Source: a virus
Lineage: Duplodnaviria > Heunggongvirae > Uroviricota > Caudoviricetes
Virus record (IMG/VR): IMGVR_UViG_2541047945_000009
Coordinates: 1-32,125 of that record
Reading direction: 5' to 3' (one strand)
DNA length: 32,125 nt
The notes under the pieces are model-generated. The model had not been told where the DNA came from. It did no database searches and worked only from the letters and a program-made list of their open reading frames with translations. The position numbers and the translations under genes were made by a program. Below, piece after piece: positions 1-26,030 of this stretch (its first letter is position 1; each line of letters begins with the position of its first letter).

Positions 1-1236
1 CTATGATAACCGCGCATTCAACATGGCTATCTGTTCGTCGTTCATGTCATCAATCCACATACCGTAAATTTCATACACCATCTGCGCAGTTTCATGCCCC
101 ATTTGGCTGGCTATAAATGCCGGGTTCGCTCCTGCCGTCAACAGCCAGCAGGCAAAAGTATGCCGCGTATGGTACGGATTACGGCGGCGAATACCAGCAC
201 GTTTTACTGCTGCATTCCACCTTGCCCCCAAACTGCTTACCGAGTAATAAGGTTTTTGTTTTCCGTTACACACCCTGGGCATGAAAACAAAATGCAGTTT
301 TTGCTTTTCGGTTCTGCCGTACTCCCGATGATAAAAGGTGATTTCGCTTTTGCGATGATGCCCGGTCAGTTTGTATTGCTCCTTCAGTGCTTCAAGAGCA
401 GGCTGCAGTAGTGTTACTGTCCGGATCCCGGCATTTGTTTTTGGGGGACCGAACATATCAAGTATCGTCAGGTTTCTTCTGACATTCACTATTCCCTTTT
501 CGAGATCCACATCCTCCCACGCCAGAGCTGCCAGTTCCCCGTGACGAAGTCCTGAGTAAACTGCAAATTTCCACATGTTCTGGCTCTGTCCTTTTTCACT
601 TTCCATTAATGCATTGAATTCTGTTTTAGATAACGGATCAGGCTTTATTCTGTTTCGCTGTAATTTTTTTACTCCTTCAAATGGTTTGGTTGATATAAAT
701 CCCGACTGATACGCAAAACGTAACAGCGAACAGAGCAGGGCGATATAGTTATCAACTGTGCGCACGGTTCTTCCTTTTTTGTTGGATCTTGGATTATCCA
801 GGTAAAGCGTTTCTCCATGCAGCAGTTCATTCCGGTAGTTTAAGATATCGCTATAACGAATATGTGATATCAGGGTACTTTCACAAATTATTATTCTGAG
901 TGTTTTTAATTGTGATTTCGTTTTCTTCATTGTGTTTGTTGTTAACTCTGTCTCTTTAATTTTTGTCCAGATATCACAAAGCTCTCCGAACGTTTTTATG
1001 ACTCTCGTTGTCACCATTTTTGCCCCAGTGCTGGACTGGGGAAAACGTCTTAAATACTCAAATTCACCGGAGTTTATTTCATGAACTATCAGCGCTCTTA
1101 AATTTCCGGCCTTTTTAATATTACTGTTTGTAATCTCCCAGCCTTTTAATGTTTCCCGACATCGTTTTCCTCGAAACATGAACCAGATGCGAATGTATCT
1201 ACCTCTAATCTCGACACCTGTTGGTAATTTAGACAT
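1..1236 (-). CDS. intR: Phage integrase, tyrosine recombinase (Rac IntR-like)
   Basis: 411-aa ORF at the prophage edge directly followed by an excisionase-like gene; C-terminal region (…NPYHTRHTFACWLL…MVYEIYG) fits the tyrosine recombinase catalytic region. Stop codon is at window position 1-3, so attL lies outside the window. Confidence 0.9.
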   Translation of the reverse strand: MSKLPTGVEIRGRYIRIWFMFRGKRCRETLKGWEITNSNIKKAGNLRALIVHEINSGEFEYLRRFPQSSTGAKMVTTRVIKTFGELCDIWTKIKETELTTNTMKKTKSQLKTLRIIICESTLISHIRYSDILNYRNELLHGETLYLDNPRSNKKGRTVRTVDNYIALLCSLLRFAYQSGFISTKPFEGVKKLQRNRIKPDPLSKTEFNALMESEKGQSQNMWKFAVYSGLRHGELAALAWEDVDLEKGIVNVRRNLTILDMFGPPKTNAGIRTVTLLQPALEALKEQYKLTGHHRKSEITFYHREYGRTEKQKLHFVFMPRVCNGKQKPYYSVSSLGARWNAAVKRAGIRRRNPYHTRHTFACWLLTAGANPAFIASQMGHETAQMVYEIYGMWIDDMNDEQIAMLNARLS

Positions 1237-1237
1237 A

Positions 1238-1453
1238 TCATGAGTCTTTGATAAACTGATTTATCTTTGGATAGTTGTACCAGATAATCCCTCGTTTGCT
1301 GTCTGGCTTACCTAAAGGAGATACTCGTTTGAAGTGGAAGCCCTCCACCCAACAGTTCTGGCGGTATGCTTCAATTTGTCTGGCCCCCAGACCAGTGCGA
1401 AGCATCAGGCCGTATTCAACCATCCACTCTTCATTAAAGATTACTTGTGCCAT
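1238..1453 (-). CDS. xisR: Excisionase-like protein (YdaQ/XisR-like)
   Basis: 71 aa from internal Met [10 protein letters not shown] of the 79-aa track ORF; immediately upstream of int on the same strand; matches my memory of Rac YdaQ. Confidence 0.65.
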
Positions 1454-1552
1454 CGCATCACCTCTGGCAGGCGCCAATGTTAGACTGAAATTGACGCCCG
1501 ATGTTGATTATTAATAATCAGCTATGAAGTTTTAATTTGAATACAATGCAAT

Positions 1553-1741
1553 TCACGAGGACTGAAGTTTCTCGCAATTAAAATTTATCAGTTTTACTTT
1601 CTGCTCTCTGGAAACGCCTGCTTCTTTTTTACCTGAGAGCATTTTTTCGCATTCTGATTTCGTTAGTTTAGATTTTGAATATCTTGTCCAGTTAGTAGGA
1701 GTGCCACCTTCCTTTTCAATAGTGGCGGTAATTTTATACAT
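1553..1741 (-). CDS. ydaC: Small Rac early protein YdaC-like
   Basis: 62 aa from internal Met MYKITATIEKEGG, preceded by GGAGGTG Shine-Dalgarno; the longer track ORF would overlap ralR extensively. Start choice is inference. Confidence 0.5.
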   Translation of the reverse strand: MYKITATIEKEGGTPTNWTRYSKSKLTKSECEKMLSGKKEAGVSREQKVKLINFNCEKLQSS

Positions 1742-1928
1742 GAACACCTCCGTTATTATTTCCAGTGGTTCGTTTATTCCATCTTTCGAGTGCTTCTTTT
1801 TCACTTCCACCATAACCGGTTCGGGATTCGCATCCGTTACACTTCGCTCGGTAATATCCTGAAATGACTTTCACCGTTACTGATGGACAACCACAAAATG
1901 GACATGGTTTAACATTGTCATATCTCAT
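1734..1928 (-). CDS. ralR: Restriction-alleviation protein / toxin RalR (Lar family)
   Basis: 64 aa from Met MRYDNVKPCPFCGC…CNGC (Cys-rich zinc-ribbon-like); sits directly downstream of recT as in Rac. Confidence 0.7.
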   Translation of the reverse strand: MRYDNVKPCPFCGCPSVTVKVISGYYRAKCNGCESRTGYGGSEKEALERWNKRTTGNNNGGVHV

Positions 1929-1984
1929 AATTTTTCTCATAAAAAATATTTCAAGTTGGCGGTGCATTACACCGCCAGGCTGAA

Positions 1985-2794
1985 TTATTCCTCTGAATTA
2001 TCGATTACACTGTATTCCCCGGTTAATACAGAGGAATCTGCAGGATCGATTGTCAGTGGTTCCTTTTCATCCATTGATACTGCACGCTGGATCTCAATTG
2101 ATACGGGCAGATATTTGAACAGGCGACGAATAGCCGTTTTCTTTGCCATTTCTTCCCAGTGAGTTACCCACGGCCCGTTATTACCAGCTTTACTCAGGCT
2201 GCGCACCAGCTCAATCTGTTTGCGCGTCATAACTTCAAACTGAGTACCTCCGTCTTTCAGTCTTGCGACAGCATAGACGTGGGTAACCGGGGCATCTTCG
2301 TTTTCTCCCGGGCGGTGTATTAACTTTTCATCAAGGCCAAATTCGAAGCTAAACTCGTCACCTTCACGGACAACACGGGCTGACAGGCTGGCGATTTGAC
2401 CAGAACGGCGAGCCAGATCAATCATGCCGCGATAGCCAATGATTAGCTGAACGTTCTTTTTACCGCTCTTTTCGTTTTTATTACCAAAAGGCAGTAAATA
2501 TGCATGACCGAGGGCGCTACCTGGCTCAAGTCCGAGCTGTGAACACTGTACGATCGCACTGACAAAACTCATAGTGTCACAGTTTCCTAACGCCGGAACT
2601 TTACGAATTTCTGTGGTGGCGATACGGATCATACGTTCAGCCGTCATATGGCGTGGAAGAGCTGCTGCCAGTTGCTCTTTCATTGATGGCTGGTTAATAA
2701 AACTAATCACGTCGCTATTTTTAACTGCTGCTGGTGCACGGTTTCCCTGAGTTTTTTGCAGATCGGCTTTTGCGATTGGTGGTTGCTTAGTCAT
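1985..2794 (-). CDS. recT: RecT single-strand annealing recombinase
   Basis: 269 aa from [16 protein letters not shown]…; near-identical to K-12 RecT as I recall it. Start chosen at the second ATG (AAGGA Shine-Dalgarno 8 nt upstream), not the track start at 2851. Confidence 0.95.
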
Positions 2795-5387
2795 TTGCAT
2801 ATTCCTTAGCCCAGCGGGGCAGTGATAATGTCTTAATAGCTGGCCATTCATCGGTATTCAGGCAGTCAGACAGGGTTCGCAGATTGCGGTGATATTCCTG
2901 TTGACCTGCCAGTTTTGCTTCTTCGCCCATCATGAAAATTTCAACCGGATAACGTCCGCATTCAATAGTTGTGCTGGCAACCAGAAAAACGAAAGTTGGC
3001 TGCACTCCAAACTGTGCTTCATAACCGTCACTGTAGAATGCATCCTGAACGTGATAGCGGTAGTCGTAATAAGCGGTTTTGAATCGTTGAATATCCGCCG
3101 TAGTTTTCACGTCCATGATCCAGTGAAATTCAGGGATAATTTTGTCCGGACGGCACCGACACAAAATTCCTGTTTCAGGATCTTCCCAGTAAATTGATGA
3201 TTCAGCGTGTCCGGCGCTTTCAACAAGCCATTGCCCCAGCGGCAAAGCCATAACGCTTTGATACATGAGTTCAATTTTCCGGCCTTCTTCCGCAGTGATA
3301 ACCGTTTTTCCTGTGCTTGCGCATTCCATCAGAAACGCTTTCTCTTCTTCTTTTCCGGCGTTTGTACGGCGGTTAAATTCAGGTGCTACGATAAAGCGGT
3401 TACTGAATTCTTCCGGTTCAAGTACCCGGCAGTGGAAAGCGGTTCCTAAATCGAGCGTTTTTGTCTTTGTGGTGTCCACGGGGGCATTTTTACGCCACAA
3501 ATATAGTGCCGGAGTATCAGCAATGTCATCGAGCTGAGACTTACTGACACCGGGACCCGCGTGGTAATTCTCATTCGAAATTCCGTAATAAATACCTGGC
3601 TCTATGTCTTCTACGATTACGGGATCTGCGACTTCGCCAGTTTCATCACTGCAATCGCGATGCGGATCGCTGCCAGCATTCTCATTGTGCGGATGTTCAG
3701 CGCCTTCCATTTCCTCCGGATCATTTTCCTTAGCTTCAACCTGACTCTCTTCATCGAATGTTTCCTGGTATGTTGCGTCGCCCATCACCGCACCACAGTC
3801 AGGGCAGTTATCCCCGCCAGTCTGGCCGCAGGCATTGCAGGCTATTTCCGGTTCCTGTTGCACTACTGGCTCAGGTTGATTCATATCCGGGCTGGTTTTT
3901 TCCGTTTCTGGCTGGTTCTGGTACACACAATCGCGAGTCTGGATCCCCTTTACCCATTTCGGATCGTTCGGGTCGCTAATTCCGTCAACAAATTCACCAC
4001 GTGATGCAGCAAGCAATTTATCGGCATCGACAGGATTTTTTGATGGAATGTTTTTCCGGGCTTCATGGAGTTCTGCCCGCAGTTCCTGATATTTCGCATC
4101 AACAGAATTTACCTGTGACTGAGCATCCAGCGGCTGCGTGTCCTGATGATGTTCAGTTGCGTCCGGTTCCATTGTTTCAGCCTCTCCCTGTTCAACTGCC
4201 GTTGTTCCAGATGGTTGCGGTTTTTCTTCATCATCCTGTTTTCCTTCTTCTGTTACTCGCTGCGGCATCGGGGCAGAGGAGCGACCGCAGGCAATATCCA
4301 CGATTTCCGGATCAGGGTTGGCATGATCGGTTTCAGTCAGTACTTTGTTCAGATATTCAGTGACGTGCGCGGGGATGACCTCGATCCCAATTGGTGCTTC
4401 TTTTACGGACGCAACCACGATGGCGCGGGAATAATCCAGCCCGCCAGGCATGGTGATGAATTTGTCGCGGAAAACAGAAAAGGGCGGTTTATTTTCAGCG
4501 ATAATTTCCTCAATGCGTTTAGCGTGTGCCGGATGAAGGTTATAGATGTCCAGATCCATTGAACGGGCCAGTACGCCAGTGGCTACGTCGCGCGCCAGTG
4601 ACGTCAGATCGTGTACGAAACCTTCGCCGCGATCGGTGAGGTTTCCGCCGCCAGCATTAGCACCGGAAGCCGTGCGAGTGATGTGTGAAACACGATTACC
4701 CTTCATCCACTCTTTTGTCAGCAGTCCTCGATCGGTGTAGTCAGCGTTCAGGTATGCTTCGAAAAAAGCAGTTATCAGTCCCAGGTTTGAATTACCAGGA
4801 TTAGGGAAAACTTTGTCAGTGTCACGAACCAGTTTGTGGAGTTCGCGAATTTCCAGCGGGTCGAGCAGGCTGGTTTTGTGGGAAACAGCCAGAGCAGTAA
4901 CAGCCGGTAGTTCTTCAGCCCGAGCAATGTGTAATGCCTGGAGTCCGTCGCGTGAAACGTGCGTTACCGGTTTTTCGCTGCCGTGTTGAGCAAGCCAACG
5001 AATGGGCAGTTCCTGGCCAGAAATTGGGAGTAGCATATTCTCCTCAATCTCAGTCATGTCTTCGCCGTTGACGTTGGTATTGCCTTGATAGTGAGCGTTG
5101 TCTGGTGCTGCTCCCGGTTTTAGTTCCCATGTCATGGAGTCTTTGCTGAGTTGATAGCGTTCACTCCAGGTAAAATCGATCTCACCTTCAGCGGGCAGGT
5201 CATTAACGACAGGAAAATTCGTGGCAACAGCTTTAAAATAGCTGCTCAGTTTTTTACCTGACTTAACGATCAGGTAGTCCAGAGTGGCACAGGTCGATTC
5301 AAAATCGTTGCTTGCCCACAGGACGACGTCAGGTTCACCGGATGATTTTTTCGCTTTCCGTAACAGGAAGAGTGGTTTTGTGCTCAT
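2787..5387 (-). CDS. recE: Exodeoxyribonuclease VIII (RecE)
   Basis: 866-aa ORF matching K-12 RecE in length and sequence from memory ([11 protein letters not shown]…WAKEYAND); its 3' end overlaps the recT start by 8 nt. Confidence 0.95.
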
Positions 5388-5488
5388 TGTTTTTTAACCT
5401 CAACTCAGATTAAAATTCGTTTTGTTCAGTGAATGATCTTGCCGGATACACACTGTTCATAGCCTGCGCCATACGCAGGCTATTTCTT

Positions 5489-5764
5489 TCAGATTTCACC
5501 TTTTAATTTCATTGCAATTAGAGTTGCCAGAAATTCGGCTTTTTTTTCTGCGGGCAGATTCTTTCCGATATGCACCAGGCACATTTTTTTGACACCTTCA
5601 TCAAGTGTTTTTACGTTGCCTGATGGACCATCGATATCAACCACAGTGAATGGGGTTTCTTTATTTTCTGTTTTAATTACGTAGCCAATGCGCTTTCCTT
5701 CCAGATTCACCTCGTGAACAATGTCATCGGTAGTTACAACAGTGGCTTCATAATTGGTAATCAT
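5489..5764 (-). CDS. racC: RacC protein
   Basis: 91 aa from MITNYEATVVTTDD… with AAGGAG Shine-Dalgarno; position between recE and kilR as in Rac. Confidence 0.75.
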   Translation of the reverse strand: MITNYEATVVTTDDIVHEVNLEGKRIGYVIKTENKETPFTVVDIDGPSGNVKTLDEGVKKMCLVHIGKNLPAEKKAEFLATLIAMKLKGEI

Positions 5765-5838
5765 GTTTTTCTCCTTAATTAAGGTTGAGCGAATACCTGC
5801 CATTTCTGGCATAAATTCAGTTTCGAATAGTCAATTAA

Positions 5839-6009
5839 TTAAAGTTCATGTGCCATCTGGTCTTTTTCGGCACAAGCTTCACTGCAATATTTTCTCGGTT
5901 CGTCTTTTGATAAAATCCCGTGCATGAAGTGAAGCATTCTTTCAATAGCTTTGCTTTCTTCAACGTCTTTTTTGCAAAGGTGGTAAGCACATTTTATTTT
6001 CTTAGTCAT
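5839..6009 (-). CDS. ydaE: Small Cys-rich protein YdaE-like (56 aa)
   Basis: Translated by hand from the minus strand: [56 protein letters not shown]; not in the ORF track because it is under 60 aa. Its ATG overlaps the kilR stop (ATGA). Confidence 0.55.
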   Translation of the reverse strand: MTKKIKCAYHLCKKDVEESKAIERMLHFMHGILSKDEPRKYCSEACAEKDQMAHEL

Positions 6010-6230
6010 CACCATGACTCCGCCTTTACAGGTAAACCATCACGACCGAGGAAGACTTTAATCATGCGGTCAGTAATGAATGTTTTTGTGGTCAGGTTAC
6101 GAATATATAGTTTTCGCTTTTTAATATTGTTTGCCGAGGCAATATATGTCCGGCCTTCATGAAGAACATAATCGCCAGGAGTCACACACTGACGTGGTAT
6201 TTCATCAGTTCCGAAGTGATGTGCAATCAT
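6009..6230 (-). CDS. kilR: KilR, FtsZ-targeting cell-division inhibitor
   Basis: 73 aa from [14 protein letters not shown]… with GGAG Shine-Dalgarno; matches Rac KilR from memory. Confidence 0.85.
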
Positions 6231-10558: not shown

Positions 10559-11320
10559 ATGGAGACTGTTTTTGACGCACTGAAAGCAATGGGAAAAGCC
10601 ACGTCGGTAGAACTGGCTGCGCGACTTGATATCAGTCGTGAAGAGGTACTGAACGAGCTGTGGGAACTGAAAAAGGCTGGTTTCGTTGATAAAAGCGTAT
10701 ACATCTGGCGTGTGGCTGATAACAACGTTCAGCAGGAACAGCCAGAGCAGGCAGAACTGCCGGAAGAAACCACCACGGCAACAGTCGCAAAAATTTCGGA
10801 GTGCGATTTAACTGCGACGATTGAACAACGTGGCCCACAAACGGCGGATGAACTGGCTACGTTTTTCGGCATCACATCACGCAAAGTGGCTTCAACGCTG
10901 GCAATGGCAATCAGTAAAGGTCGTCTGATTCGCGTTAATCAGAACGGTAAATTTCGTTACTGCATGCCGGGCGATAATTTACCAGCAGAGCCGAAAGCTG
11001 CATCGGTAGCGGAAACTGATGGTAAAGCCTTTCCTCAGCCAGCCGGTGTTGCGTTACCAGCACAGGAAGCGGCAACACAGGAAGAAATTAAAACAGATAC
11101 TATGGGGGACATTGTGCAGTCACTACCATCGTTCACTGAAACGCGAGCCAATGACCTGATTTTACCATCGCTGCATATGGCAAACCGCGAACTGCGCCGG
11201 GCGAAAAGTCATGTCCAGAAGTGGGAGCGAGTCTGCGCCGCGCTGCGTGAGTTGAACAAGCACAGGGATATTGTACGACAGATTACTGATTCTTCCCGCC
11301 ATGTTGCATCGGAAAAGTGA
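10559..11320 (+). CDS. ydaW: YdaW-like protein, full length
   Basis: 253 aa from [13 protein letters not shown]… with GGGAGG Shine-Dalgarno; two winged-helix-like segments. The track start at 10508 would overlap ydaV. Confidence 0.6.
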
Positions 11321-11335
11321 TTGCCGGAGGCACCT

Positions 11336-11665
11336 ATGGCAAAAGTATTTACACCAGAAGAGCGGGAAAAAATTAAAGGGCAGGTTGTTGAACTTGTACG
11401 TCTGAGCGGTCGCGAGACGTTACGGGCTCTGGAGGCTAAAACCGGTGCATCAAGGTATTACATAAGCACTCTTGCCAGAGAACTGGTCGCCAGTGGTGAT
11501 GTTTACAATTCTGGCTACGGATTATTCCCGTTTGAGCAGGCGCGTAAAGACTGGCAAAACGCCCGCAAAAAACTATCAAGGGCAAAGATGAAGAAACCGG
11601 TTGTGGTAGATCCAAACCTAATCTGGTCATTACCTGATGGAGAAATCCGTCGCCTTAGTCTTTGA
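11336..11665 (+). CDS. Hypothetical protein, HTH-like
   Basis: ORF from ATG MAKVFTPEEREK… with GGAGG Shine-Dalgarno; …RETLRALEAKTGASRYYISTLAREL… looks like a helix-turn-helix. Track ORF begins at 11321 with a non-ATG codon. Confidence 0.45.
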   Translation: MAKVFTPEEREKIKGQVVELVRLSGRETLRALEAKTGASRYYISTLARELVASGDVYNSGYGLFPFEQARKDWQNARKKLSRAKMKKPVVVDPNLIWSLPDGEIRRLSL

Positions 11666-11700
11666 TACTATGTTTATAATGTTGAAAAAGAGTCTAATAG

Positions 11701-11730
11701 TTGACATTGTATGAAATATGATTGTTATAT
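11701..11730 (+). promoter_or_regulatory. Candidate sigma70 promoter for the NTPase gene
   Basis: Perfect TTGACA at 11701-11706, about 18-bp spacer, TTATAT; roughly 35 bp upstream of the ATG at 11767. Confidence 0.4.
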
Positions 11731-11766
11731 AAAATGATTTTTTTGGAGACTGTTTAAGGTAAACAA

Positions 11767-14025
11767 ATGAAACCAGAATACTTAAGGAAAATAGAATCAT
11801 TGCAACGTGAGGTTGATGATTTCCATCCAGTGCTAAGAGCGCTTCTACCACGTTTGCCGACTGTTACACATGTTGAATATAAGCAAGGACCATCAGAAAA
11901 AGGTGCTGATTTTGTCATAATTAAACGAGATGAGGCATTAGATGAGGAAATATATATTGGGGTTATTTGTAAGGTTGGAAAGATAATTCAGTCAAATAGT
12001 GAGGTCGAACGACAAATAGAAGAGTGTCAATTATACCCACGCTTTATTTCTTCTGGCTCTAAGAACATACATTTGAATGAAATTTGGGTTGTTACTAATT
12101 CATCAATCTCAAATAATGCTCAAGAAAAAATCTACTTAAAATTCAAATCTACAAATATAAAGTTTATAGAAGGTGAGAAAATATGTTCTTTAATCAGTAA
12201 ATATTACCCAGAGTTTTGGGATTTCGAATCCATTAATTATGAGCAATACTTAACAGATACATTGCAAACCATAAGTGATACTCCTGAAAGTTCTTTTTTT
12301 GGTAGTGTTGGCATAAATAACCTTATTGATAGATATGTAAGCAAGGAAGATCATAAAAAACGCAGGCACAGGCCGTTAAAACTGTATAGTGTTGTGAGAG
12401 CCGAGAGATTTATTTTTTTAGAGGGAACTGTTGGCTCCGGGAAAAGTACTTTGCTGAAACAGCTAATTAAAAAAATAAAAGAAGAATATTCTTACGAAAA
12501 AGACTACATCCTTCCAGTATTTTGCCAATACAAGGATGTTCTAGAAAAAAAACTCAATATTGAAAATATAATACAAAGTGTATTAAGTAAGTACAAAATA
12601 CAACATGATGGGAATATTTTATTAATTGTTGATTCGGTGGATGAAGTAAAGGAATCACTTGAGGAAAGGCAAAACAACTTCAGGGACATTGTAGAGAAAG
12701 TATCCAGGAGTGATAAAGTTCGATTACTAGTTGCTTCAAGAATTATGGACTCTCTTCAGGACTATGAAGTTATCGATCAGATGTTTGCAAGATACTCGAT
12801 AATACCACTTAGCACAGGTCAAATAATCGACTTTGTAGATAAAATCTGCAATGACATTAAAATAACAAACAAGCTTAAGAATGGTATAGAAAAAACACCA
12901 CTATTTAAATTCATTCCCAGGACTCCAGTGAGTGCTATTCTTCTAGCAAGAATACTCTCTGATGAGATTAAAGAATTACCATCTACAATGACAGAACTAT
13001 ACTCAAAATACAGTGAGATAGTATTGGGACGATGGGATACATCTAAGGGATTATTATCGCAAACAGAATATGATGTAATAAGTAATATATTAGTAGAAAT
13101 TGCGATGTTTATGATGGATAACTCTCTAAACTGCATATCAATTTCTGAAGTGCAGGACATGTTTTTAAATTATTTGGCCAAAAGAAACTTGAATGTTGAT
13201 GAGGACAAACTTTTCAAAAGACTAATTTATCGCAGTGAAGTAACAACAGTTAATGTTAGAACTAATACGTTCTCATTTCTACACAGATCATTCATGGAGT
13301 ATTTTTACGCTGAAGGACTTAGGAAGCGTGGCTTAATAGACATAAATGATAATATTTATGATATTTATTGGGCAAATAGTTATTTCTTCTATTTTGGTTT
13401 ATTAAGAGACAATGAATATCTTATTGATAAAATTAATGAACTTAAACCTAGTAACGATAAAACAAGATTTTTAAGGTTATTTTATAACGGTTCTTTTTAT
13501 TTGGCTTCATATCTAACTCCGTATAAAAAAATAGCAAGGGGAGTCCTTTTATCATATATAGATGCAGGTAAATTATATGTTGATATTCTCCATGGAAATA
13601 CCGACATCCCGCTGAAGGAGTTTTCACCAGTAGCTCTTCTTTGTATTTTTACAAAGTGTTTAAGTAACAATTACGCATATGATTTTTTCAAATCTGCCTT
13701 GGAAGACTTGTCAGTTCAAATTGAACAATATGAGGAAATTGGGGAACATATTGATTATGCACGTTTCTTCATAGCATCAACACTGAATGAGCTCGGGGAT
13801 AAATCCGCATTTGATAGCTTAGTGGAAAAAAATAAATTAGGTGTTTTGATTAATTTAGGGATAACTCACGTTACAGACGACTCAGGGCTACTAAGTACTA
13901 CGGTTGATAAGTACCTGAAAAAATTCAATAAAAAAGTACGAAGTAACCATGATATGTCTAATTATATATCTAAGTTATATGAGGAATCTACTGGTTCCTT
14001 ACGTACAAACCTACAAATTCAATAA
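11767..14025 (+). CDS. NACHT/STAND-like P-loop NTPase with N-terminal Mrr-like (PD-(D/E)xK-like) domain; candidate antiphage protein
   Basis: 752-aa ORF. Walker A GTVGSGKST (aa 220-228, nt 12424-12450); Walker B LLIVDSVDE (aa 285-293) followed by RLLVASR, the hhhhD[GAS]xDE + sensor pattern typical of NACHT. N-terminus …GADFVIIKRDEALDEEIYIGVICK… resembles an Mrr-type nuclease core. Strongly AT-rich compared with flanking genes. Confidence 0.8.
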   Translation: MKPEYLRKIESLQREVDDFHPVLRALLPRLPTVTHVEYKQGPSEKGADFVIIKRDEALDEEIYIGVICKVGKIIQSNSEVERQIEECQLYPRFISSGSKNIHLNEIWVVTNSSISNNAQEKIYLKFKSTNIKFIEGEKICSLISKYYPEFWDFESINYEQYLTDTLQTISDTPESSFFGSVGINNLIDRYVSKEDHKKRRHRPLKLYSVVRAERFIFLEGTVGSGKSTLLKQLIKKIKEEYSYEKDYILPVFCQYKDVLEKKLNIENIIQSVLSKYKIQHDGNILLIVDSVDEVKESLEERQNNFRDIVEKVSRSDKVRLLVASRIMDSLQDYEVIDQMFARYSIIPLSTGQIIDFVDKICNDIKITNKLKNGIEKTPLFKFIPRTPVSAILLARILSDEIKELPSTMTELYSKYSEIVLGRWDTSKGLLSQTEYDVISNILVEIAMFMMDNSLNCISISEVQDMFLNYLAKRNLNVDEDKLFKRLIYRSEVTTVNVRTNTFSFLHRSFMEYFYAEGLRKRGLIDINDNIYDIYWANSYFFYFGLLRDNEYLIDKINELKPSNDKTRFLRLFYNGSFYLASYLTPYKKIARGVLLSYIDAGKLYVDILHGNTDIPLKEFSPVALLCIFTKCLSNNYAYDFFKSALEDLSVQIEQYEEIGEHIDYARFFIASTLNELGDKSAFDSLVEKNKLGVLINLGITHVTDDSGLLSTTVDKYLKKFNKKVRSNHDMSNYISKLYEESTGSLRTNLQIQ

Positions 14026-14037
14026 TAAATAGATTGT

Positions 14038-14070
14038 CACATTGAAGGTAACGTATCGACCTTCAATGTG
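14038..14070 (+). terminator. Hairpin just downstream of the NTPase gene (possible terminator)
   Basis: Perfect 11-bp inverted repeat CACATTGAAGG / CCTTCAATGTG with 11-nt loop, followed by moderately U-rich ATTATTATCCTCTT. Confidence 0.3.
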
Positions 14071-14687
14071 ATTATTATCCTCTTAATAATATAGCCTAGG
14101 CTACTTTCGACTTTCTGAGGCACAGAGATTGCAGAATGTATCAATCATAGTGAAGCTATCGTAAATGTCCGCACGTTTCTACAGATAGTCAGATTTGAGT
14201 GAACTGCCTCCGCAAAATGCTGGTTGGGGCCTGACTTAATACATCTGAAGAAGTGTTGGTTATGTTTGGCTGTTATGAATCAGATAATTGATATGTTGAT
14301 TAGAGGAGAAGATAGAATCAACATGGTTGTTTTTCGTATAACTATTTGTTTTACTTTTAGTTTATGCATTCTGTGTGTTAGGAGTAAGTTATTAAAGTTT
14401 AACCAAAAAATCTTGATGTCGTCCACATAGATTACTGTTACTGAACCTTATTGTGTGCATTAGTTGTGTTTTGAAATTTCAATTTAATTATTTATGATGT
14501 GTATTTTTAACGATAAATGTTTTCTGGGTAAAAGACAGTGGGGGATGAGATAGGCAATATATCATTAATCTTGATTATCTCCAGGATGCCTTTACTGTTC
14601 ATATAAATAAATCACATGCGCATCAAGTAATGTAAAGGCATCCTTTTAGTTATATCTTATTAAATGTTAATGCTTTGAGTGGAAAAC

Positions 14688-14840
14688 ATGATTCCAGCAA
14701 TTATCATATGGCTACTTTATAAAAATAATGCCCATATAAAACAACAAGTGAAAAGGATTACGGATAAAAAAGGAGCGAGATGTGCAAAGTTGTTATTTTC
14801 CATGTTTAACCACCTTAAACAATTGATGATGACGGGATGA
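14688..14840 (+). CDS. Small ORF (50 aa), possibly a small membrane protein
   Basis: MIPAIIIWLLYKNNAHIKQQVKRITDKKGARCAKLLFSMFNHLKQLMMTG; weak Shine-Dalgarno; preceded by a 12-bp inverted repeat (14584-14642) and followed by a hairpin (14865-14899). Could be non-coding. Confidence 0.2.
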   Translation: MIPAIIIWLLYKNNAHIKQQVKRITDKKGARCAKLLFSMFNHLKQLMMTG

Positions 14841-15055
14841 TTGCATCTGCAATGCTTTTATTGAAATGTTATGATAAAAAAGAACTTTTTCATAACATTA
14901 AAATGCAATTTATCTAATCGTTTTTAATAATAAGTGTGGTATTTCTATCCTTGTACCAGCTATTTAGACTGGCCCCCTGAATCACCAGACAACCAATATC
15001 ACTTATTTAAGTGATAGTCTTAATACTAGTTTTTAGGCTAGTCATTGGAGAGCAG

Positions 15056-15421
15056 ATGATTGATGTCTTAGGACCGGAGAAACGCAGACGGCGTACCACA
15101 CAGGAAAAGATCGCAATTGTTCAGCAGAGCTTTGAACCAGGGATGACGGTCTCCCTCGTTGCCCGGCAACATGGTGTAGCAGCCAGCCAGTTATTTCTCT
15201 GGCGTAAGCAATACCAGGAAGGAAGTCTTACTGCTGTCGCCGCCGGAGAACAGGTTGTTCCTGCCTCTGAACTTGCTGCCGCCATGAAGCAGATTAAAGA
15301 ACTCCAGCGCCTGCTCGGCAAGAAAACGATGGAAAATGAACTCCTCAAAGAAGCCGTTGAATATGGACGGGCAAAAAAGTGGATAGCGCACGCGCCCTTA
15401 TTGCCCGGGGATGGGGAGTAA
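15056..15421 (+). CDS. insC: IS2 OrfA (InsC), HTH transposase subunit
   Basis: 121 aa from [24 protein letters not shown]…, matching IS2 InsC from memory. Confidence 0.9.
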
Positions 15422-16284
15422 GCTTAGTCAGCCGTTGTCTCCGGGTGTCGCGTGCGCAGTTGCACGTCATTCTCAGACGAACCGATGACTGGATGGATGG
15501 CCGCCGCAGTCGTCACACTGATGATACGGATGTGCTTCTCCGTATACACCATGTTATCGGAGAGCTGCCCACGTATGGTTATCGTCGGGTATGGGCGCTG
15601 CTTCGCAGACAGGCAGAACTTGATGGTATGCCTGCGATCAATGCCAAACGTGTTTACCGGATCATGCGCCAGAATGCGCTGTTGCTTGAGCGAAAACCTG
15701 CTGTACCGCCATCGAAACGGGCACATACAGGCAGAGTGGCTGTGAAAGAAAGTAATCAGCGATGGTGCTCTGACGGGTTCGAGTTCCGCTGTGATAACGG
15801 AGAAAAACTGCGAGTCACGTTCGCGCTGGACTGCTGTGACCGTGAGGCACTGCACTGGGCGGTCACTACGGGCGGCTTCAACAGTGAAACAGTACAGGAC
15901 GTCATGCTGGGAGCGGTGGAACGCCGCTTCGGCAACGAGCTTCCGGCGTCTCCAGTAGAGTGGCTGACGGATAATGGTTCATGCTACCGGGCTAATGAAA
16001 CACGGCAGTTTGCCCGGATGTTGGGGCTTGAACCGAAGAGCACGGCGGTGCGGAGTCCGGAGAGTAACGGCATAGCAGAGAGCTTCGTGAAAACGATAAA
16101 GCGTGACTACATCAGTGTCATGCCCAAACCAGACGGGTTAACGGCAGCAAAGAACCTTGCAGAGGCGTTCGAGCATTATAACGAATGGCATCCGCATAGT
16201 GCACTGGGTTATCGCTCGCCACGGGAATATCTACGGCAGCAAGCCAGTAATGGGTTAAGTGATAACAGGTGTCTGGAAATATAG
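15379..16284 (+). CDS. insD: IS2 OrfB (InsD), DDE transposase catalytic subunit
   Basis: 301-aa ORF overlapping insC in the -1 frame; matches IS2 InsD from memory. Confidence 0.9.
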
Positions 16285-16419
16285 GGGCAAATCCACTATT
16301 TGATATGTAGTGTTTGTTCATGCTATGTGGAGCTTTACACCATAGCCAGTTTATTTATACTTTATTCGTCAGCCTGAACAACTGGCATCTGCTGCACTGC
16401 GCCATAGAGAGATTGAGAA

Positions 16420-17019
16420 ATGGCGCATATACAACTAGTCAAACAAACCTCTTCCGGATTACTTCTCCCGGCGACGCCGGAGAGTTGCGATTTTCTGCAT
16501 CAAATCAAAATAGGTGAGTGGATACACGCAGACTTTAAGCGTGTGCGTAACTACGCATTCCACAAGCGTTTTTTCAAACTCCTGCAACTGGGATTCGATT
16601 ACTGGACTCCGGTCGGTGGGGCGATCACGCCTCGCGAACGAGAACTGCTGTCTGGTTTCGTTGATTACCTGTGCGAATCAGTTGGTCGGGAACACACGCC
16701 AGCCCTGAGTGATGCCGCAGAGCAATACCTTAACACCGTTGCGACTCGTAGAACCCGGGATACGGCGTTGCTAAAGTCGTTTGAGGCTTTCCGCGAGTGG
16801 GTAACCATTCAGGCCGGATTTTACACCGAGCATATTTATCCGGACGGTAGCCGTGGGCGTCGGGCAAAATCCATCGCTTTTGCGAATATGGACGAAACCG
16901 AGTTTCAGCAGGTTTATAAATCTGTACTGAATGTGCTGTGGAACTGGATTCTGTTCCGTAAATTCTCCTCTCAGGAGGAAGTTGAAAATGTGGCCGCACA
17001 ACTACTGGAGTTTGCGTAA
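16420..17019 (+). CDS. nin-region protein (DUF1367-like, uncertain)
   Basis: 199-aa ORF MAHIQLVKQTSSG… at the head of a coupled three-gene operon; family name recalled from memory and not verified. Confidence 0.6.
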   Translation: MAHIQLVKQTSSGLLLPATPESCDFLHQIKIGEWIHADFKRVRNYAFHKRFFKLLQLGFDYWTPVGGAITPRERELLSGFVDYLCESVGREHTPALSDAAEQYLNTVATRRTRDTALLKSFEAFREWVTIQAGFYTEHIYPDGSRGRRAKSIAFANMDETEFQQVYKSVLNVLWNWILFRKFSSQEEVENVAAQLLEFA

Positions 17020-18302: not shown

Positions 18303-18833
18303 GGCTGGTTTATTGTATGCCAAATGATTATTAAAAAGGTTGTGTTAATAACAAAACCCGAAATAATATGCCTGCATATTTTTATCTTGCTTATATTCTG
18401 CATATTGTGCATAGCAGGCTCATCCCTGCAATCAAAACTGTATGATGAGTATTTTTTGTTTTCCTTTTTTCCAGTCATCTGATGATGACCTGCTTCTTTT
18501 TAATCCGGATCGACATCAGTTTTTTAAGATAATTCCTGCGAGTTATATGCATAAATACCACAAACTCCGCATTTTATGTGGTTGGGAGTTGCCGGGCGCG
18601 CAGTGAGTTTGCTAAGAAAACTCCTGCATGGTGAATCCCCCTGTGCGGTGGGGTGATACCATTAACCTTTTCTGTCGCCGACAGGTATCACGAACATTTT
18701 GTTCACCGGGAGGCACCCGGCACCATGCACTTCAATAGATTCTCTCCACATTATGGATATTCTTTCAGAATATCCCACGCAGACTTTGTGTAAATGTTAA
18801 CAAATGTGCGTTTTATTTGATCTGATTCGCTGT

Positions 18834-18892: not shown

Positions 18893-19285
18893 ATGGGTTT
18901 TCGTAGCGCATCAATTCTTACGTTGATTATTAGTGGGATTATTATCGGGTGCACTGATGCTGTATCGACAAATTATCATGACCGTACATCATATTACTCC
19001 GATAAAGCAATAGAGACACAGTATGTGAGTTCATCTGAACGTACTTCTGATGTTAGTGAGGATATCCGTCTGTATGCCCATCAAATCAAGAGCGCCATCG
19101 AAAAACAGTTCGGGGATGCGAGTAAGTATTCAGGAAAAGAGTGTACACTGAGAATGCATATGGCCCCGAATGGCCTTCTACTGGAGGTTAAAAGAGAAAG
19201 TGGAGACCTCGATTTATGTCGTGAAGCGATGAATGCGATAAAGAATGCTGATATACCTGCCCCCCCCTTCGCCGGAAGTATATAA
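18893..19285 (+). CDS. Lipoprotein with TolA C-terminal domain III-like domain
   Basis: 130 aa; signal peptide with lipobox IIGC; C-terminal YAHQIKSAIEKQFGDASKYSGKECTLRMHMAPNGLLLEVKRESGDLDLCREAMNAIKNADIPAPP aligns closely with my memory of E. coli TolA domain III (YAGQIKSAIESKFYDASSYAGKTCTLRIKLAPDGMLLDIKPEGGDPALCQAALAAAKLAKIPKPP). Confidence 0.7.
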   Translation: MGFRSASILTLIISGIIIGCTDAVSTNYHDRTSYYSDKAIETQYVSSSERTSDVSEDIRLYAHQIKSAIEKQFGDASKYSGKECTLRMHMAPNGLLLEVKRESGDLDLCREAMNAIKNADIPAPPFAGSI

Positions 19286-19472
19286 AGTATTTCAAAATGG
19301 GGTGCTGGATTTTAAACCCTGATATTTATTGTTTTGTAATAAACGGTTTCGGCTTAGGTTTGTTCTGACACAGCTACGGCACTGAGCTAAATTTAGCGGA
19401 TAGTCAGCTCTGAGCCAGTGGCGGACGTAACAACTACTATTGCTGAGATTTTAATGGATTGAGGAGCAAGAA

Positions 19473-19868
19473 GTGGGATTAAAGAAAATCGTTATGTTGA
19501 CTTTTTGGGTCGGTTTTGTTGCGGGATGCACACCTTTACACCCTTCAGATTGCCACAAAACTACTGCTACAGGTAGTTGCAGTTCAGGACGCTGGGATGA
19601 TCAGGATGAATGGGGGGCGCAAGCGCGGGGAATCAGAGCTGCAATTAATGCCAAACTTGATGAGCCGCATAACTGGAAAGGGAAAAAATGCAGGTTGCAT
19701 ATGGAATTCTCTCAGGATGGCACGGCGTTAAAAATATCTACCAGTAACGGTGATAAAGCCTATTGCGAAGCGATAAAGTCCGCAGCTCATAAAGCCAAAT
19801 TTCCGGCCTTCAACAATCCGGAAGTCTACAGAGATTTTCAGAAATCTGGCTTTGACATGCGAGGTTAG
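19473..19868 (+). CDS. Second lipoprotein with TolA domain III-like domain (paralog)
   Basis: 131 aa, GTG start with GAGGAG Shine-Dalgarno; lipobox VAGC; shares the K-C-L-HM…G…GD…C…A…P pattern and a C-terminal VYRDFQKSGFDMRG resembling the TolA end VYEVFKNAPLDFKP. Confidence 0.7.
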   Translation: MGLKKIVMLTFWVGFVAGCTPLHPSDCHKTTATGSCSSGRWDDQDEWGAQARGIRAAINAKLDEPHNWKGKKCRLHMEFSQDGTALKISTSNGDKAYCEAIKSAAHKAKFPAFNNPEVYRDFQKSGFDMRG

Positions 19869-24935: not shown

Positions 24936-26030
24936 ATGAGCAGACCGGACTGGGGGGCGTTGCAGCAGGAGTATATTGCTGAATACACCCGCTCCGGTAT
25001 ATCTCCGGTGGCATGGTGTGAAGCAAGGGGACTGAACTACGCAACAGCCCGTCGTTACATCAAAAAAACTCCGAAAAATGCGCAGAAAGAAATGCGCAAA
25101 ACTGCGCAAAAAAGTGCGCGAAAAAAAACTGCGCAGACTGCGCAAAGGCAGAACGGAAAATCTCAGAAAAAAAAGGCTGTATCCGATGCACTCCTGATTG
25201 AGGGGGACACGGAAGAAATTTCGTTCTGCCCCGATGAATTCGGTATTTCTGACCAGCAGGCAAAATTCGCCATGTTGGTTGCTCAGGGGAAAAAGCCGAC
25301 AGAGGCATACCGACTGGCTGGTTATGAGGGGCAAGGTGCGACAGCTAACAGCAACGCCAGCCGTATGCTTAGAAATGCCAGGGTTTATCGTGCTATCAGC
25401 TACTTCCGCAATCAGTACCAGAAACGCTATACCGCAGACCTGGATTTACTGGTGAGCCAGTTGATGGCCATTGTCCAGGCCGACCCCAATCAGTTGGCAC
25501 AATTTCGCCGTGTTAACTGCCGTTATTGCTGGGGCGAGAATCATCTCTACCAGTGGCGTGATATTGCAGAATTCGATAAGGCTGCGGCACAGGCCTCCAG
25601 AGATGGTAAACCCGAGCCGGAATATGGAGGCCTCGGCTTTGTTGATAACGCCATACCCAATCCTGATTGCCCGAAGTGCTGCGGTGAGGGAACAGGACAG
25701 CTTTATATGGCTGATACCACACTGCTTGATGGGGATGCGCGGCAATTATATGCAGGGTCAAAGCTCGGAAAATACGGTGTTGAGATCCTGCTGGAGGATA
25801 AGGCTGCCGCCCGGCGTGAATTGTTGCGTTTGCTTTCTGCTGGCGGGGCATTATGTGCAGATAAGCGGCTACAGGAACTGGAAATTGAACGGCGCAGAAT
25901 AGAGAACCAGAAGCTGCGCAAAGAGATCGAAACGGTGGAGGATAATGAACATCCCCAGCCTGTGGCGATCAATATTAATGTGGTTGATGCCAGATTAAGG
26001 AGTGATGAAGATGATCTCTCCGACGCTTAA
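24936..26030 (+). CDS. Putative terminase small subunit
   Basis: 364-aa ORF directly upstream of the large terminase; N-terminal HTH-like region, basic repeat region and CPKCCGEG zinc-ribbon-like motif. Longer than a typical small subunit. Confidence 0.5.
   Translation: MSRPDWGALQQEYIAEYTRSGISPVAWCEARGLNYATARRYIKKTPKNAQKEMRKTAQKSARKKTAQTAQRQNGKSQKKKAVSDALLIEGDTEEISFCPDEFGISDQQAKFAMLVAQGKKPTEAYRLAGYEGQGATANSNASRMLRNARVYRAISYFRNQYQKRYTADLDLLVSQLMAIVQADPNQLAQFRRVNCRYCWGENHLYQWRDIAEFDKAAAQASRDGKPEPEYGGLGFVDNAIPNPDCPKCCGEGTGQLYMADTTLLDGDARQLYAGSKLGKYGVEILLEDKAAARRELLRLLSAGGALCADKRLQELEIERRRIENQKLRKEIETVEDNEHPQPVAININVVDARLRSDEDDLSDA

Follow-up and report, generated by a model that had tools for sequence, protein, structure and literature searches.

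An AT-rich cassette of a Rac-type Escherichia coli prophage encodes bNACHT25, a single-protein anti-phage defence related to animal NLR sensors

Main

What is a long, AT-rich gene doing inside a Rac-type prophage, is it new, and how much of the surrounding AT-rich DNA travels with it? We addressed these questions for IMG/VR virus record IMGVR_UViG_2541047945_000009, the whole analysed stretch of which (32,125 nucleotides, hereafter the window) is assigned to the Caudoviricetes. The initial annotation, made from the letters alone, proposed that an island at positions 11666–14964 carries an NTPase fused to a nuclease-like domain and acts as a prophage-borne defence. Here we report that the 752-residue gene within it is bNACHT25, an E. 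coli anti-phage protein already in the literature and tested by experiment, and a relative of animal NLR immune sensors. The deduction was right, but with the gene already described under that name it is a re-discovery rather than a new finding. The Rac slot in which the gene sits, the limits of its cassette and the neighbouring IS2 element are described here beyond the published accounts. We are very confident in a single explanation that joins this identification, a clade 6 single-protein defence, carriage on a prophage cassette and the published mechanism.

Results and discussion

Identity and published activity of the gene

11767..14025, + strand: bNACHT25 coding sequence, 752 aa (WP_001702659.1; open reading frame list, 100% DNA identity to NZ_CP091756.1)

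Positions 11000–16500 of the window are 100.0% identical over 5,501 bp to the RefSeq sequence NZ_CP091756.1, in which the coding sequence at the matching coordinates carries WP_001702659.1, the accession of bNACHT25 from E. coli ECOR11 (Kibby et al., bioRxiv 10.1101/2022.07.19.500537; Conte et al. 2025, PLoS Biol, PMC12169576). The open reading frame had been placed correctly by the initial annotation, the published residue numbers D48, H506 and S508 match its residues, and the ECOR11 and window proteins are identical, with the same REase–NACHT–NCH1 architecture and no difference between them. The exact protein is present on 117 public contigs. Neither publication discusses its genomic setting, and Conte et al. 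2025 do not use the word ‘prophage’ at all (0 occurrences). Nothing was found that contradicts the identification.

When supplied with its native regulatory region, bNACHT25 defends against T2, T4 and MS2, spanning DNA and RNA phages (Conte et al. 2025, PMC12169576; Kibby et al., 10.1101/2022.07.19.500537), and a D48A substitution abolishes both defence and DNA degradation (Conte et al. 2025, PMC12169576). Two hyperactivating substitutions, H506L and S508P, make the protein toxic, constitutively so in the case of H506L, and adding D48A relieves this toxicity (Kibby et al.; Conte et al. 2025). The proposal of a single-gene anti-phage system with its own promoter, and the choice of D48 as a catalytic residue, are both upheld by this work; cloning with native regulatory DNA, challenge with a phage panel and substitution of D48, which had been put forward as checks, were already in the literature. 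Substitutions of K226 and K69 were not found in Kibby et al. or Conte et al. 2025, the latter of which reports no Walker A mutant of bNACHT25 (PMC12169576).

A NACHT module between a nuclease and an NCH1 domain

11767..12216, + strand: PD-(D/E)xK (FokI/Mrr-type) DNase effector domain, residues ~1–150
12379..13401, + strand: NACHT NTPase module (nucleotide-binding domain, helical domain, winged helix), residues ~205–545 (Pfam, invariant columns, Foldseek)
13492..13989, + strand: NCH1 domain, residues 576–741 (Pfam PF22728, 132.2 bits, E 2.2e-38)

The claim of a NACHT-type STAND NTPase stands on several lines. The motifs read from the translation are present as first described, with Walker A GTVGSGKST at residues 220–228 (including K226), Walker B LLIVDSVDE at 285–293 and RLLVASR at 319–325; the Walker B is the D-S-V-D-E form of the signature D[GAS]hDE, which in the bNACHT literature sets NACHT apart from other STAND clades. 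Pfam NACHT (PF05729) scores 37.2 bits over residues 214–353 against a cut-off of 26.7. Among 106 homologs of 31–94% identity, the key residues of the module (K226, the D289-S-V-D292-E293 acidic residues, R325 and H506) are invariant, as are D48 and K69 of the N-terminal domain and the Walker A glycines G223 and G225. The protein therefore shows the marks of the NACHT clade, namely Walker A, D[GAS]hDE, a profile match above threshold, a sensor-1 arginine and a winged-helix histidine. R325 and H506 are predicted to contact ADP, and the bNACHT authors aligned H506 with H443 of NLRC4.

A search of PDB sequences returned no solved relative. Foldseek comparison of the full-length model ranked NLRC4, NOD2 and NLRP3 highest (E 2.5e-11 to 1e-8), followed by Avs4 and Avs3. 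With the animal NLRs, bNACHT25 shares the NACHT sub-domains, the regulatory histidine (NLRC4 H443, corresponding to H506) and hyperactivation by disease-type mutations; it differs in lacking leucine-rich repeats, with NCH1 as the sensor, in having just 12–15% identity, and in carrying as effector a nuclease fused in cis where animal NLRs use a CARD or PYD adaptor. The AVAST proteins Avs3 and Avs4, also STAND NTPases with N-terminal nucleases, belong to a different STAND clade and resemble bNACHT25 in structure only, whereas bNACHT25 carries D[GAS]hDE, matches animal NLRs more closely and is about half their size. A PADLOC-DB v2 scan of the protein found no model that recognizes it, Avs included, and gave only weak P-loop matches (HerA at 5e-06, and others); the lack of a family-level NCBIfam or PADLOC v2 match, with weak similarity to DS8 and EruA, is uninformative rather than negative.

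The N-terminal domain had been likened to Mrr-type nucleases with an unclear (D/E)xK motif, a reading that fold and conservation support. It has the alpha-beta-beta-beta-alpha-beta core of the PD-(D/E)xK fold, and in the stretch GADFVIIKRDEALDEEIYIGVICK at residues 46–69 D48 lies on strand 2 and K69 on strand 3. The domain’s invariant residues in the 106 homologs are E15, E44, D48, K69 and Q83. Position 67, where the middle acidic residue of (D/E)xK would be expected, is a hydrophobic I or V throughout the family, so the geometry of the active site departs from the textbook arrangement; E15, E44 and Q83 are candidates for the missing catalytic ligand, and the site may be completed by one of them or only in the oligomer. 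Because Pfam Mrr_cat (PF04471) falls below its cut-off (17.0 bits against 21, E 0.0065, residues 23–143), we file the domain as a PD-(D/E)xK fold of Mrr/FokI-like character rather than as a member of Mrr_cat. It shares its core with the FokI cleavage domain and Mrr-type nucleases (AF1548, MspJI, AspBHI, LlaBIII), in which an Asp likewise starts strand 2 and a Lys ends strand 3. In contrast to these enzymes, bNACHT25 has I/V67 as the middle residue, a sub-threshold Mrr_cat score and no DNA-recognition domain, and control over its nuclease lies with the NACHT module, not with recognition of a sequence or modification.

The C-terminal ~400 residues, first described as helical with no recognizable motif, can now be divided: residues up to ~550 belong to the NACHT module, with H506 in the winged helix, and residues 576–741 form NCH1, for which the Pfam score exceeds its cut-off and which is all-helical in the predicted model. 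NCH1 is the named C-terminal domain of clade 6 bNACHT proteins (Conte et al. 2025, PMC12169576), and the protein has the architecture of that clade. The closest characterized relative, bNACHT32 (WP_057688292), has the same clade and architecture, is 81% identical according to Conte et al. 2025 and likewise depends on D48 and DnaJ and responds to MS2 coat protein; it is a different allele or ortholog. Homologs at about 80–82% identity are among the search matches. Homologs of bNACHT25 occur as lone genes in mobile or defence settings that have nothing to do with one another, adjoining Kiwa in Serratia, adjoining an IS in Pseudomonas and within an integrase/IS island in Citrobacter. A tblastn search of 50,697 phage records returned no match to bNACHT25, so the gene was seen in prophage and island contexts only, not in the sequenced free phages of that collection.

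Activation through a host chaperone or by direct recognition

The mechanism that we favour follows the published experiments. In these, bNACHT25 is made constitutively from its own regulatory DNA. Phage protein synthesis activates it indirectly, via a process needing the co-chaperone DnaJ and its interaction with DnaK; MS2 coat protein is one trigger, and infection by T2 or T4 is also activating. The N-terminal PD-(D/E)xK nuclease then degrades the cell’s DNA and halts both growth and phage production in a manner resembling abortive infection. At rest, H506 probably keeps the NACHT module ADP-bound, and activation may involve nucleotide exchange and an oligomerization that would assemble the FokI/Mrr-like nuclease domains into active units.

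Alternatively, bNACHT25 could be a direct pattern-recognition receptor like Avs1–4, with NCH1 binding a phage protein and DnaJ serving only as a folding or presentation factor. Its overall architecture and nuclease fold are like those of Avs4, a direct binder of the phage portal. Binding to conserved phage proteins has since been demonstrated for many STAND families, and an upstream protein that requires DnaJ is allowed for by Conte et al. 2025 (PMC12169576). We nonetheless consider direct recognition unlikely. MS2 coat protein suffices for activation yet does not co-precipitate with bNACHT25, and defence against T2 and T4 is lost on deletion of dnaJ or in J-domain mutants, the H506L allele still being functional (Conte et al. 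2025, PMC12169576). These J-domain mutants are broken only in DnaK coupling, and the triggers are unrelated RNA and DNA phages without proteins in common. Conte et al. 2025 (PMC12169576) describe sensing as indirect and as requiring host DnaJ, whereas for Avs3 and Avs4 the contact with terminase or portal is direct.

Limits and regulatory signals of the cassette

11653..14257, + strand: segment replacing other cargo, the DUF977 3′ end and the DUF1971 gene of other Rac-type prophages (blastn breakpoints)
11676..14093, + strand: minimal mobile cassette of promoter, bNACHT25 gene and terminator hairpin (Citrobacter sedlakii comparison)
11701..11731, + strand: candidate sigma-70 promoter (TTGACA at 11701–11706, then 18 nt and TTATAT)
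14036..14072, + strand: terminator-like hairpin of a 14-bp perfect stem and a 9-nt loop, followed by AUUAUUAUCCUCUU (folding)

The island as first drawn is indeed AT-rich (31.9% GC at 11666–14964 against 46.5% in the rest of the window) but is composite: gene-specific DNA spans 11653–14257, and its mobile part 11676–14093. Homology to three Rac-type loci (L005, L006 and L008) ends at 11652/11653 and restarts at 14258–14261, with no repeats or microhomology seen at the junctions 11652/11653 and 14257/14258. The first 114 bp of this segment occur in only 16 genomes, always together with the gene. An island of Citrobacter sedlakii, otherwise unrelated to Rac, is 87% identical over exactly 11676–14093, defining a cassette of 2.4 kb in which homology stops 21 bp past the hairpin.

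The TTGACA-N18-TTATAT sequence proposed as a promoter is present at 11701 and is retained as a candidate; it can also be read as TTGACA-N16-TG-T-TATATA, of the extended −10 type, and a ribosome-binding site, AAGGT, lies at ~11756–11760. In two diverged copies of the cassette (L002 and L009) the promoter hexamers are kept while the spacer diverges, and the hairpin (−20.3 kcal/mol, z = −5.0 against shuffles) retains an identical stem with differing loop and flanks. A generic scan for promoters and terminators listed 22 sites against 17.2 ± 3.6 in shuffles, no better than chance, and conservation between diverged cassettes is more informative; the scan passed over the promoter because TTATAT lacks an A at position 2 and the hairpin because its stem is GC-poor. 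Published bNACHT25 constructs with endogenous regulatory DNA are active.

A variable cargo slot in Rac-type prophages

11336..11665, + strand: truncated DUF977 gene on the side of the Rac replication module (RefSeq pseudogene, ‘missing C-terminus’)
16420..17019, + strand: DUF1367 gene, first of the conserved right flank (DUF1367–DUF1364–DUF1133)

The bNACHT25 cassette occupies a variable cargo slot of Rac-type prophages, in which we observed bNACHT25 with or without hokD, a DUF262, HNH and TPR set, KilA-N with Hok/Gef, and QueH. On its left, homology to full-length DUF977 ends at 11652 and the incoming cassette supplies the last codons and stop; by comparison of translations, ~34 C-terminal residues have been lost. 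The earlier comparison with K-12 holds in that Rac there runs directly from ydaW to the rzpR remnant, but it does not provide an empty site: K-12 ydaW is what is left of a DUF1627 gene, whereas the gene next to the cassette in the window is DUF977, and K-12 has therefore lost the whole slot. Literature searches of the available library turned up no specific account of a Rac or lambdoid hotspot here, which is not proof of absence. The interval from DUF977 to DUF1971/DUF1367 may be an undescribed hotspot that exchanges self-contained defence cassettes.

The gene sits immediately downstream of the lambdoid replication module, and lambda-type replication depends on DnaJ and DnaK. The sensor could therefore be tuned to, or restrained from firing on, lambdoid replication, that of its own prophage included. 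Taken jointly, the hotspot, a replication-tuned sensor and an unusual nuclease active site form a reading that we offer tentatively and regard as possible rather than probable.

Rarity and inactivation in E. coli

Only 18 of 5,426 complete E. coli genomes carry the bNACHT25 cassette, and about a third of these copies are damaged (about 5–6 of the 18 are frameshifted, split or truncated). Such rarity and damage would fit a gene that in this genome does not serve the host as a defence but is the eroding cargo of a defunct prophage, or a selfish toxic element, and is silent or selected against where it naturally resides. The prophage is cryptic: from trkG to a solitary tail-fibre gene it has no genes for head or tail assembly, and it carries two IS elements. 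The low GC content (32%) makes H-NS silencing plausible. We find this alternative quite improbable, given that the gene in the window is undamaged and is the very allele that defends from its own regulatory DNA, that promoter hexamers and terminator stem are conserved between 87%-identical cassettes, and that catalytic residues are under strong constraint across the protein family.

The downstream spacer and IS2

14258..14964, no strand: AT-rich, unannotated Rac-type backbone spacer upstream of DUF1367, outside the defence cassette (genome survey)
14965..16295, + strand: IS2 (IS3 family), 1331 bp (IS3-family transposase annotation; ends read)

The right-hand limit first given to the island, 14964, proved to be merely the edge of an IS2 copy, flanked by a 5-bp target duplication, CTATT, at 14960–14964 and 16296–16300; an otherwise identical locus (L003) lacks the element. 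The spacer before it occurs in 466 of 5,426 E. coli genomes at 90–95% identity, most of them without bNACHT25, adjoins different cargo in L005–L008, and bears no annotated feature in any sampled record. That the whole of 11666–14964 is one acquired island, its downstream 0.9 kb encoding a small toxin, an antitoxin RNA, a regulator or the like as partner of the NACHT protein, is suggested by the continuous AT-richness, a 51-codon open reading frame (14275–14430) in frame in several loci and hokD at the equivalent position of a sister allele, yet is close to refuted and highly improbable: nearly all of the 466 genomes lack the NACHT gene, the Citrobacter copy has only 11676–14093 in common, 12 of the 51 residues change at ~91% DNA identity, and bNACHT25 is described as a single-gene system (Conte et al. 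2025, PMC12169576). That reading frame had no Pfam or NCBIfam match, Hok/Gef included, and an Rfam search of 13950–15000 found nothing, hok/sok RNA included. On the genome survey, Citrobacter limits, reading-frame divergence and Rfam result, the downstream 0.9 kb was rejected as part of the defence system. A second reading frame (14689–14840, 50 aa) was rejected as a gene because a 1-bp indel removes its start in other loci.

Significance

For annotation, this locus has calibration value, in that a reading of the sequence by itself gave the architecture, function and key residue D48 of a validated defence gene that the PADLOC v2 profiles miss. To the published account we make small additions: where exactly the mobile cassette begins and ends, the variable slot that it occupies in Rac-type prophages, and how rare and how often inactivated it is in E. 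coli. The bNACHT proteins, kin of the animal NLR immune sensors, have been described as the first bacterial innate system acting on RNA phages; among them, bNACHT25 stands as the example of guarding a host chaperone rather than binding a phage molecule.

A known NACHT gene in a cryptic Rac prophage

The initial annotation had read a 752-amino acid (aa) open reading frame in an AT-rich island as a NACHT-type, single-gene phage defence; the frame is present exactly as described, and this interpretation is supported. The CDS at the matching RefSeq coordinates is WP_001702659.1, labelled 'NACHT domain-containing protein', the accession given to the E. coli ECOR11 protein bNACHT25 in the Fig. S9 legend of Kibby et al. 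(bioRxiv 10.1101/2022.07.19.500537) and also found in the accession list of Conte et al. 2025 (PMC12169576). Numbered as in those papers, D48, H506 and S508 land on the correct residues of the frame, and the exact protein sequence occurs on 117 contigs in a public protein collection. Judged by these sequence matches, the gene is already known rather than new, a re-discovery of the characterised bNACHT25.

Features of the bNACHT25 locus (nucleotide positions in the window; residues in the protein)
11767-14025, + strand: bNACHT25 open reading frame, 752 aa (ORF listing)
Residues 23-143: Pfam Mrr_cat, 17.0 bits against a cut-off of 21, below threshold
Residues 214-353: Pfam NACHT, 37.2 bits against a cut-off of 26.7
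Residues 576-741: Pfam NCH1, 132.2 bits against a cut-off of 27
11676-14093: candidate promoter, gene and hairpin cassette, a 2.4-kb unit common to a Citrobacter sedlakii island
14036-14072: hairpin with a 14-bp stem, free energy -20.3 kcal/mol, z -5.0
14965-16295: IS2, with a CTATT target duplication

Positions 11000-16500 are 100% identical to the E. coli chromosomes NZ_CP091756.1 and NZ_CM128543.1, and the annotated region is a Rac prophage integrated beside ttcA. Its order runs intR, xisR, ralR, recT, recE, racC, kilR, sieB, repressor genes, ydaT, ydaV, DUF1627 and a truncated DUF977, followed by the NACHT gene, an IS3-family element, DUF1367-DUF1364-DUF1133, lysis genes, trkG, a lone tail-fibre gene and sitD. 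As no head or tail assembly genes were found in this annotated region, the prophage is cryptic, and it is further marked as degraded by two insertion sequences, IS2 and a second IS3-family element (about 24969-26182, - strand) with an annotated frameshifting pseudoknot, which interrupts a late-region remnant. The same prophage carries sieB, kilR and a type I toxin-antitoxin pair, in which the RalA antitoxin sRNA (1557-1735, + strand; Rfam RF02694, 225 bits) lies opposite the ralR toxin gene. A match to the sRNA family STnc100 (18596-18782, + strand; RF02076, 86.6 bits) lies between DUF1133 and the lysis genes. Two TolA-related frames (about 19061-19321 and 19493-19867, + strand), the first annotated as a pseudogene of a tolA fragment and the second as a 'TolA C-terminal domain-containing protein', are unusual cargo for a position 5' of the lysis cassette. 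It is possible that bNACHT25 is silent cargo here, but the window copy is intact and does not differ from the functional allele.

A non-canonical nuclease motif

The NTPase motifs given in the initial annotation were located at residues 220-228 (GTVGSGKST, with K226), 285-293 (LLIVDSVDE) and 319-325 (RLLVASR), and the N-terminal string GADFVII...IGVICK at residues 46-69, containing D48 and K69. Profile searches place the NACHT and C-terminal NCH1 domains above their cut-offs, whereas the proposed Mrr-like domain falls short. Structure prediction returned a nuclease-type core for the N terminus: modelled with AlphaFold, residues 1-177 (pLDDT 86.4, pTM 0.76) adopt an alpha-beta-beta-beta-alpha-beta order that places D48 at the start of strand 2 and K69 at the end of strand 3. 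The full-length model (pLDDT 85.4) has NLRC4, NOD2, NLRP14 and NLRP3 as top structural matches, then Avs4 and Avs3; a PDB sequence search returned no solved structure among its sequence relatives.

A homolog search gave 172 proteins, from Enterobacterales, Aeromonas, Pseudomonas, Stenotrophomonas and other groups, the majority of them full-length at 750-800 aa. Across an alignment of 106 homologs (31-94% identity), E15, E44, G46, D48, F49, K69 and Q83 are invariant in the nuclease domain, as are G223, G225, K226, D289, D292, E293, R325 and H506 in the NACHT module. Residue 67, the acidic slot of a canonical (D/E)xK, is I or V in all 106, which bears out the initial remark that the catalytic triad is not cleanly assignable. 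Invariant E15, E44 and Q83 without a middle acidic residue point to a non-canonical metal-binding site (window 11767-12020).

Published activity and mode of sensing

The bNACHT genes of ECOR strains were cloned together with their own regulatory DNA and tested against T2-T7, lambda-vir, M13, MS2 and Qbeta (bioRxiv 10.1101/2022.07.19.500537; PMC12169576). bNACHT25 belongs to clade 6, with an N-terminal PD-(D/E)XK DNase and C-terminal NCH1, and D48A abolishes both protection and DNA degradation after MS2 infection (PMC12169576). Toxic alleles that mimic NLRC4 disease mutations (H506L/P, S508P) are rescued by D48A and counteracted by phage T5 orf015 (bioRxiv 10.1101/2022.07.19.500537; PMC12169576). 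MS2 coat protein alone suffices for activation, without co-precipitating; defence against T2 and T4 requires dnaJ with an intact J domain (PMC12169576). Protein level and solubility are the same without dnaJ, and H506L degrades DNA even then (PMC12169576). Direct reception of a phage ligand is the less probable reading in the light of the published binding and genetic data. The authors instead propose a guard-type mechanism in which bNACHT25 monitors the chaperone network, through a molecular link they describe as unknown (PMC12169576), and later work likewise cites it as a guard of that network.

A 2.4-kb cassette in a variable slot

The interval 11666-14964, taken initially as a single island, is indeed AT-rich (31.9% GC vs 46.5% in the remaining window) but splits into separate pieces when set against other Rac-type loci. 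Homology to prophages with other cargo ends at 11652, within DUF977, which here lacks about 34 C-terminal codons, and restarts at 14258. The 114 bp 5' of the ATG occur in 16 genomes only, with the gene present every time. A Citrobacter sedlakii ortholog, 92% identical, lies in an unrelated island with a partial integrase, an IS and a zeta-toxin-like gene, and the two loci have DNA in common only across 11676-14093 (87% identity). The sequence proposed earlier as a promoter (TTGACA at 11701, 18 nt, TTATAT) is present; TTGACA and TG-T-TATATA / TTATAT are both kept between cassette copies while the spacer differs, and the hairpin keeps its stem while loop and flanks vary. This conservation supports a candidate promoter and a candidate terminator for the cassette.

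The stretch 14261-14965 is found in 466 of 5,426 E. coli genomes at 90-95% identity, without annotation in any sampled record, so that 14258-14964 is backbone rather than island; 14964 is the edge of IS2, which is missing from an otherwise identical locus in strain 19KM1766N. Within this 0.7-kb AT-rich stretch lie hairpins that are conserved (about 14583-14650 and 14866-14899) and a 51-codon frame (14275-14430) that is kept open with mostly non-synonymous changes and no family match. One might guess at a regulatory role; a partner gene for bNACHT25 in this spacer is essentially excluded by an Rfam search, genome distribution, the Citrobacter comparison, ORF conservation and family searches.

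Comparison of 11653-14257 with Rac-type loci carrying other cargo (L005-L008; for example, L006 2315-4989 and L007 about 1-4989) revealed a hypothetical gene, KilA-N and Hok/Gef in one locus, a defence-like set in another (a DUF262 gene disrupted by IS1, an HNH endonuclease and a TPR protein), and a hypothetical gene with QueH in further loci; hokD follows a sister NACHT allele (97.8% identical). From these comparisons, the DUF977-to-DUF1971/DUF1367 interval looks like a cargo hotspot, a description we did not find in the searchable literature. K-12 Rac does run from ydaW to the spanin remnant, as stated in the initial annotation, but a deletion that starts inside its DUF1627 gene (the 'ydaW' of K-12) and reaches the Rz remnant makes it unusable as an empty-site control.

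Rarity and decay

The gene occurs in 18 of 5,426 complete E. coli genomes, always on the chromosome, and tblastn against 50,697 phage records found none. Judged from their annotation and the length of their alignments, about five or six of the 18 copies are frameshifted, split, IS-truncated or half-deleted (H28, H29, H39, H41, H42 and H43, with 3768-6025 of the 19KM1766N locus, L003, listed alongside); this breakage of about a third suggests that carriage is costly or that the gene is decaying inside a cryptic prophage. Homologs further removed in sequence also stand as single genes, in other mobile or defence settings, a Serratia homolog adjoining Kiwa KwaA/KwaB and recombinases and a Pseudomonas homolog adjoining an IS. 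PADLOC-DB v2 profiles gave no meaningful match to this experimentally validated defence protein, so automated defence annotation based on that release would overlook it.

Our additions to the biology of bNACHT25 are modest: its escape from PADLOC v2, a nuclease motif that is non-canonical as judged from the alignment, the limits of its cassette with a candidate promoter and terminator, a variable slot in Rac-type prophages, and its rarity and decay in E. coli.
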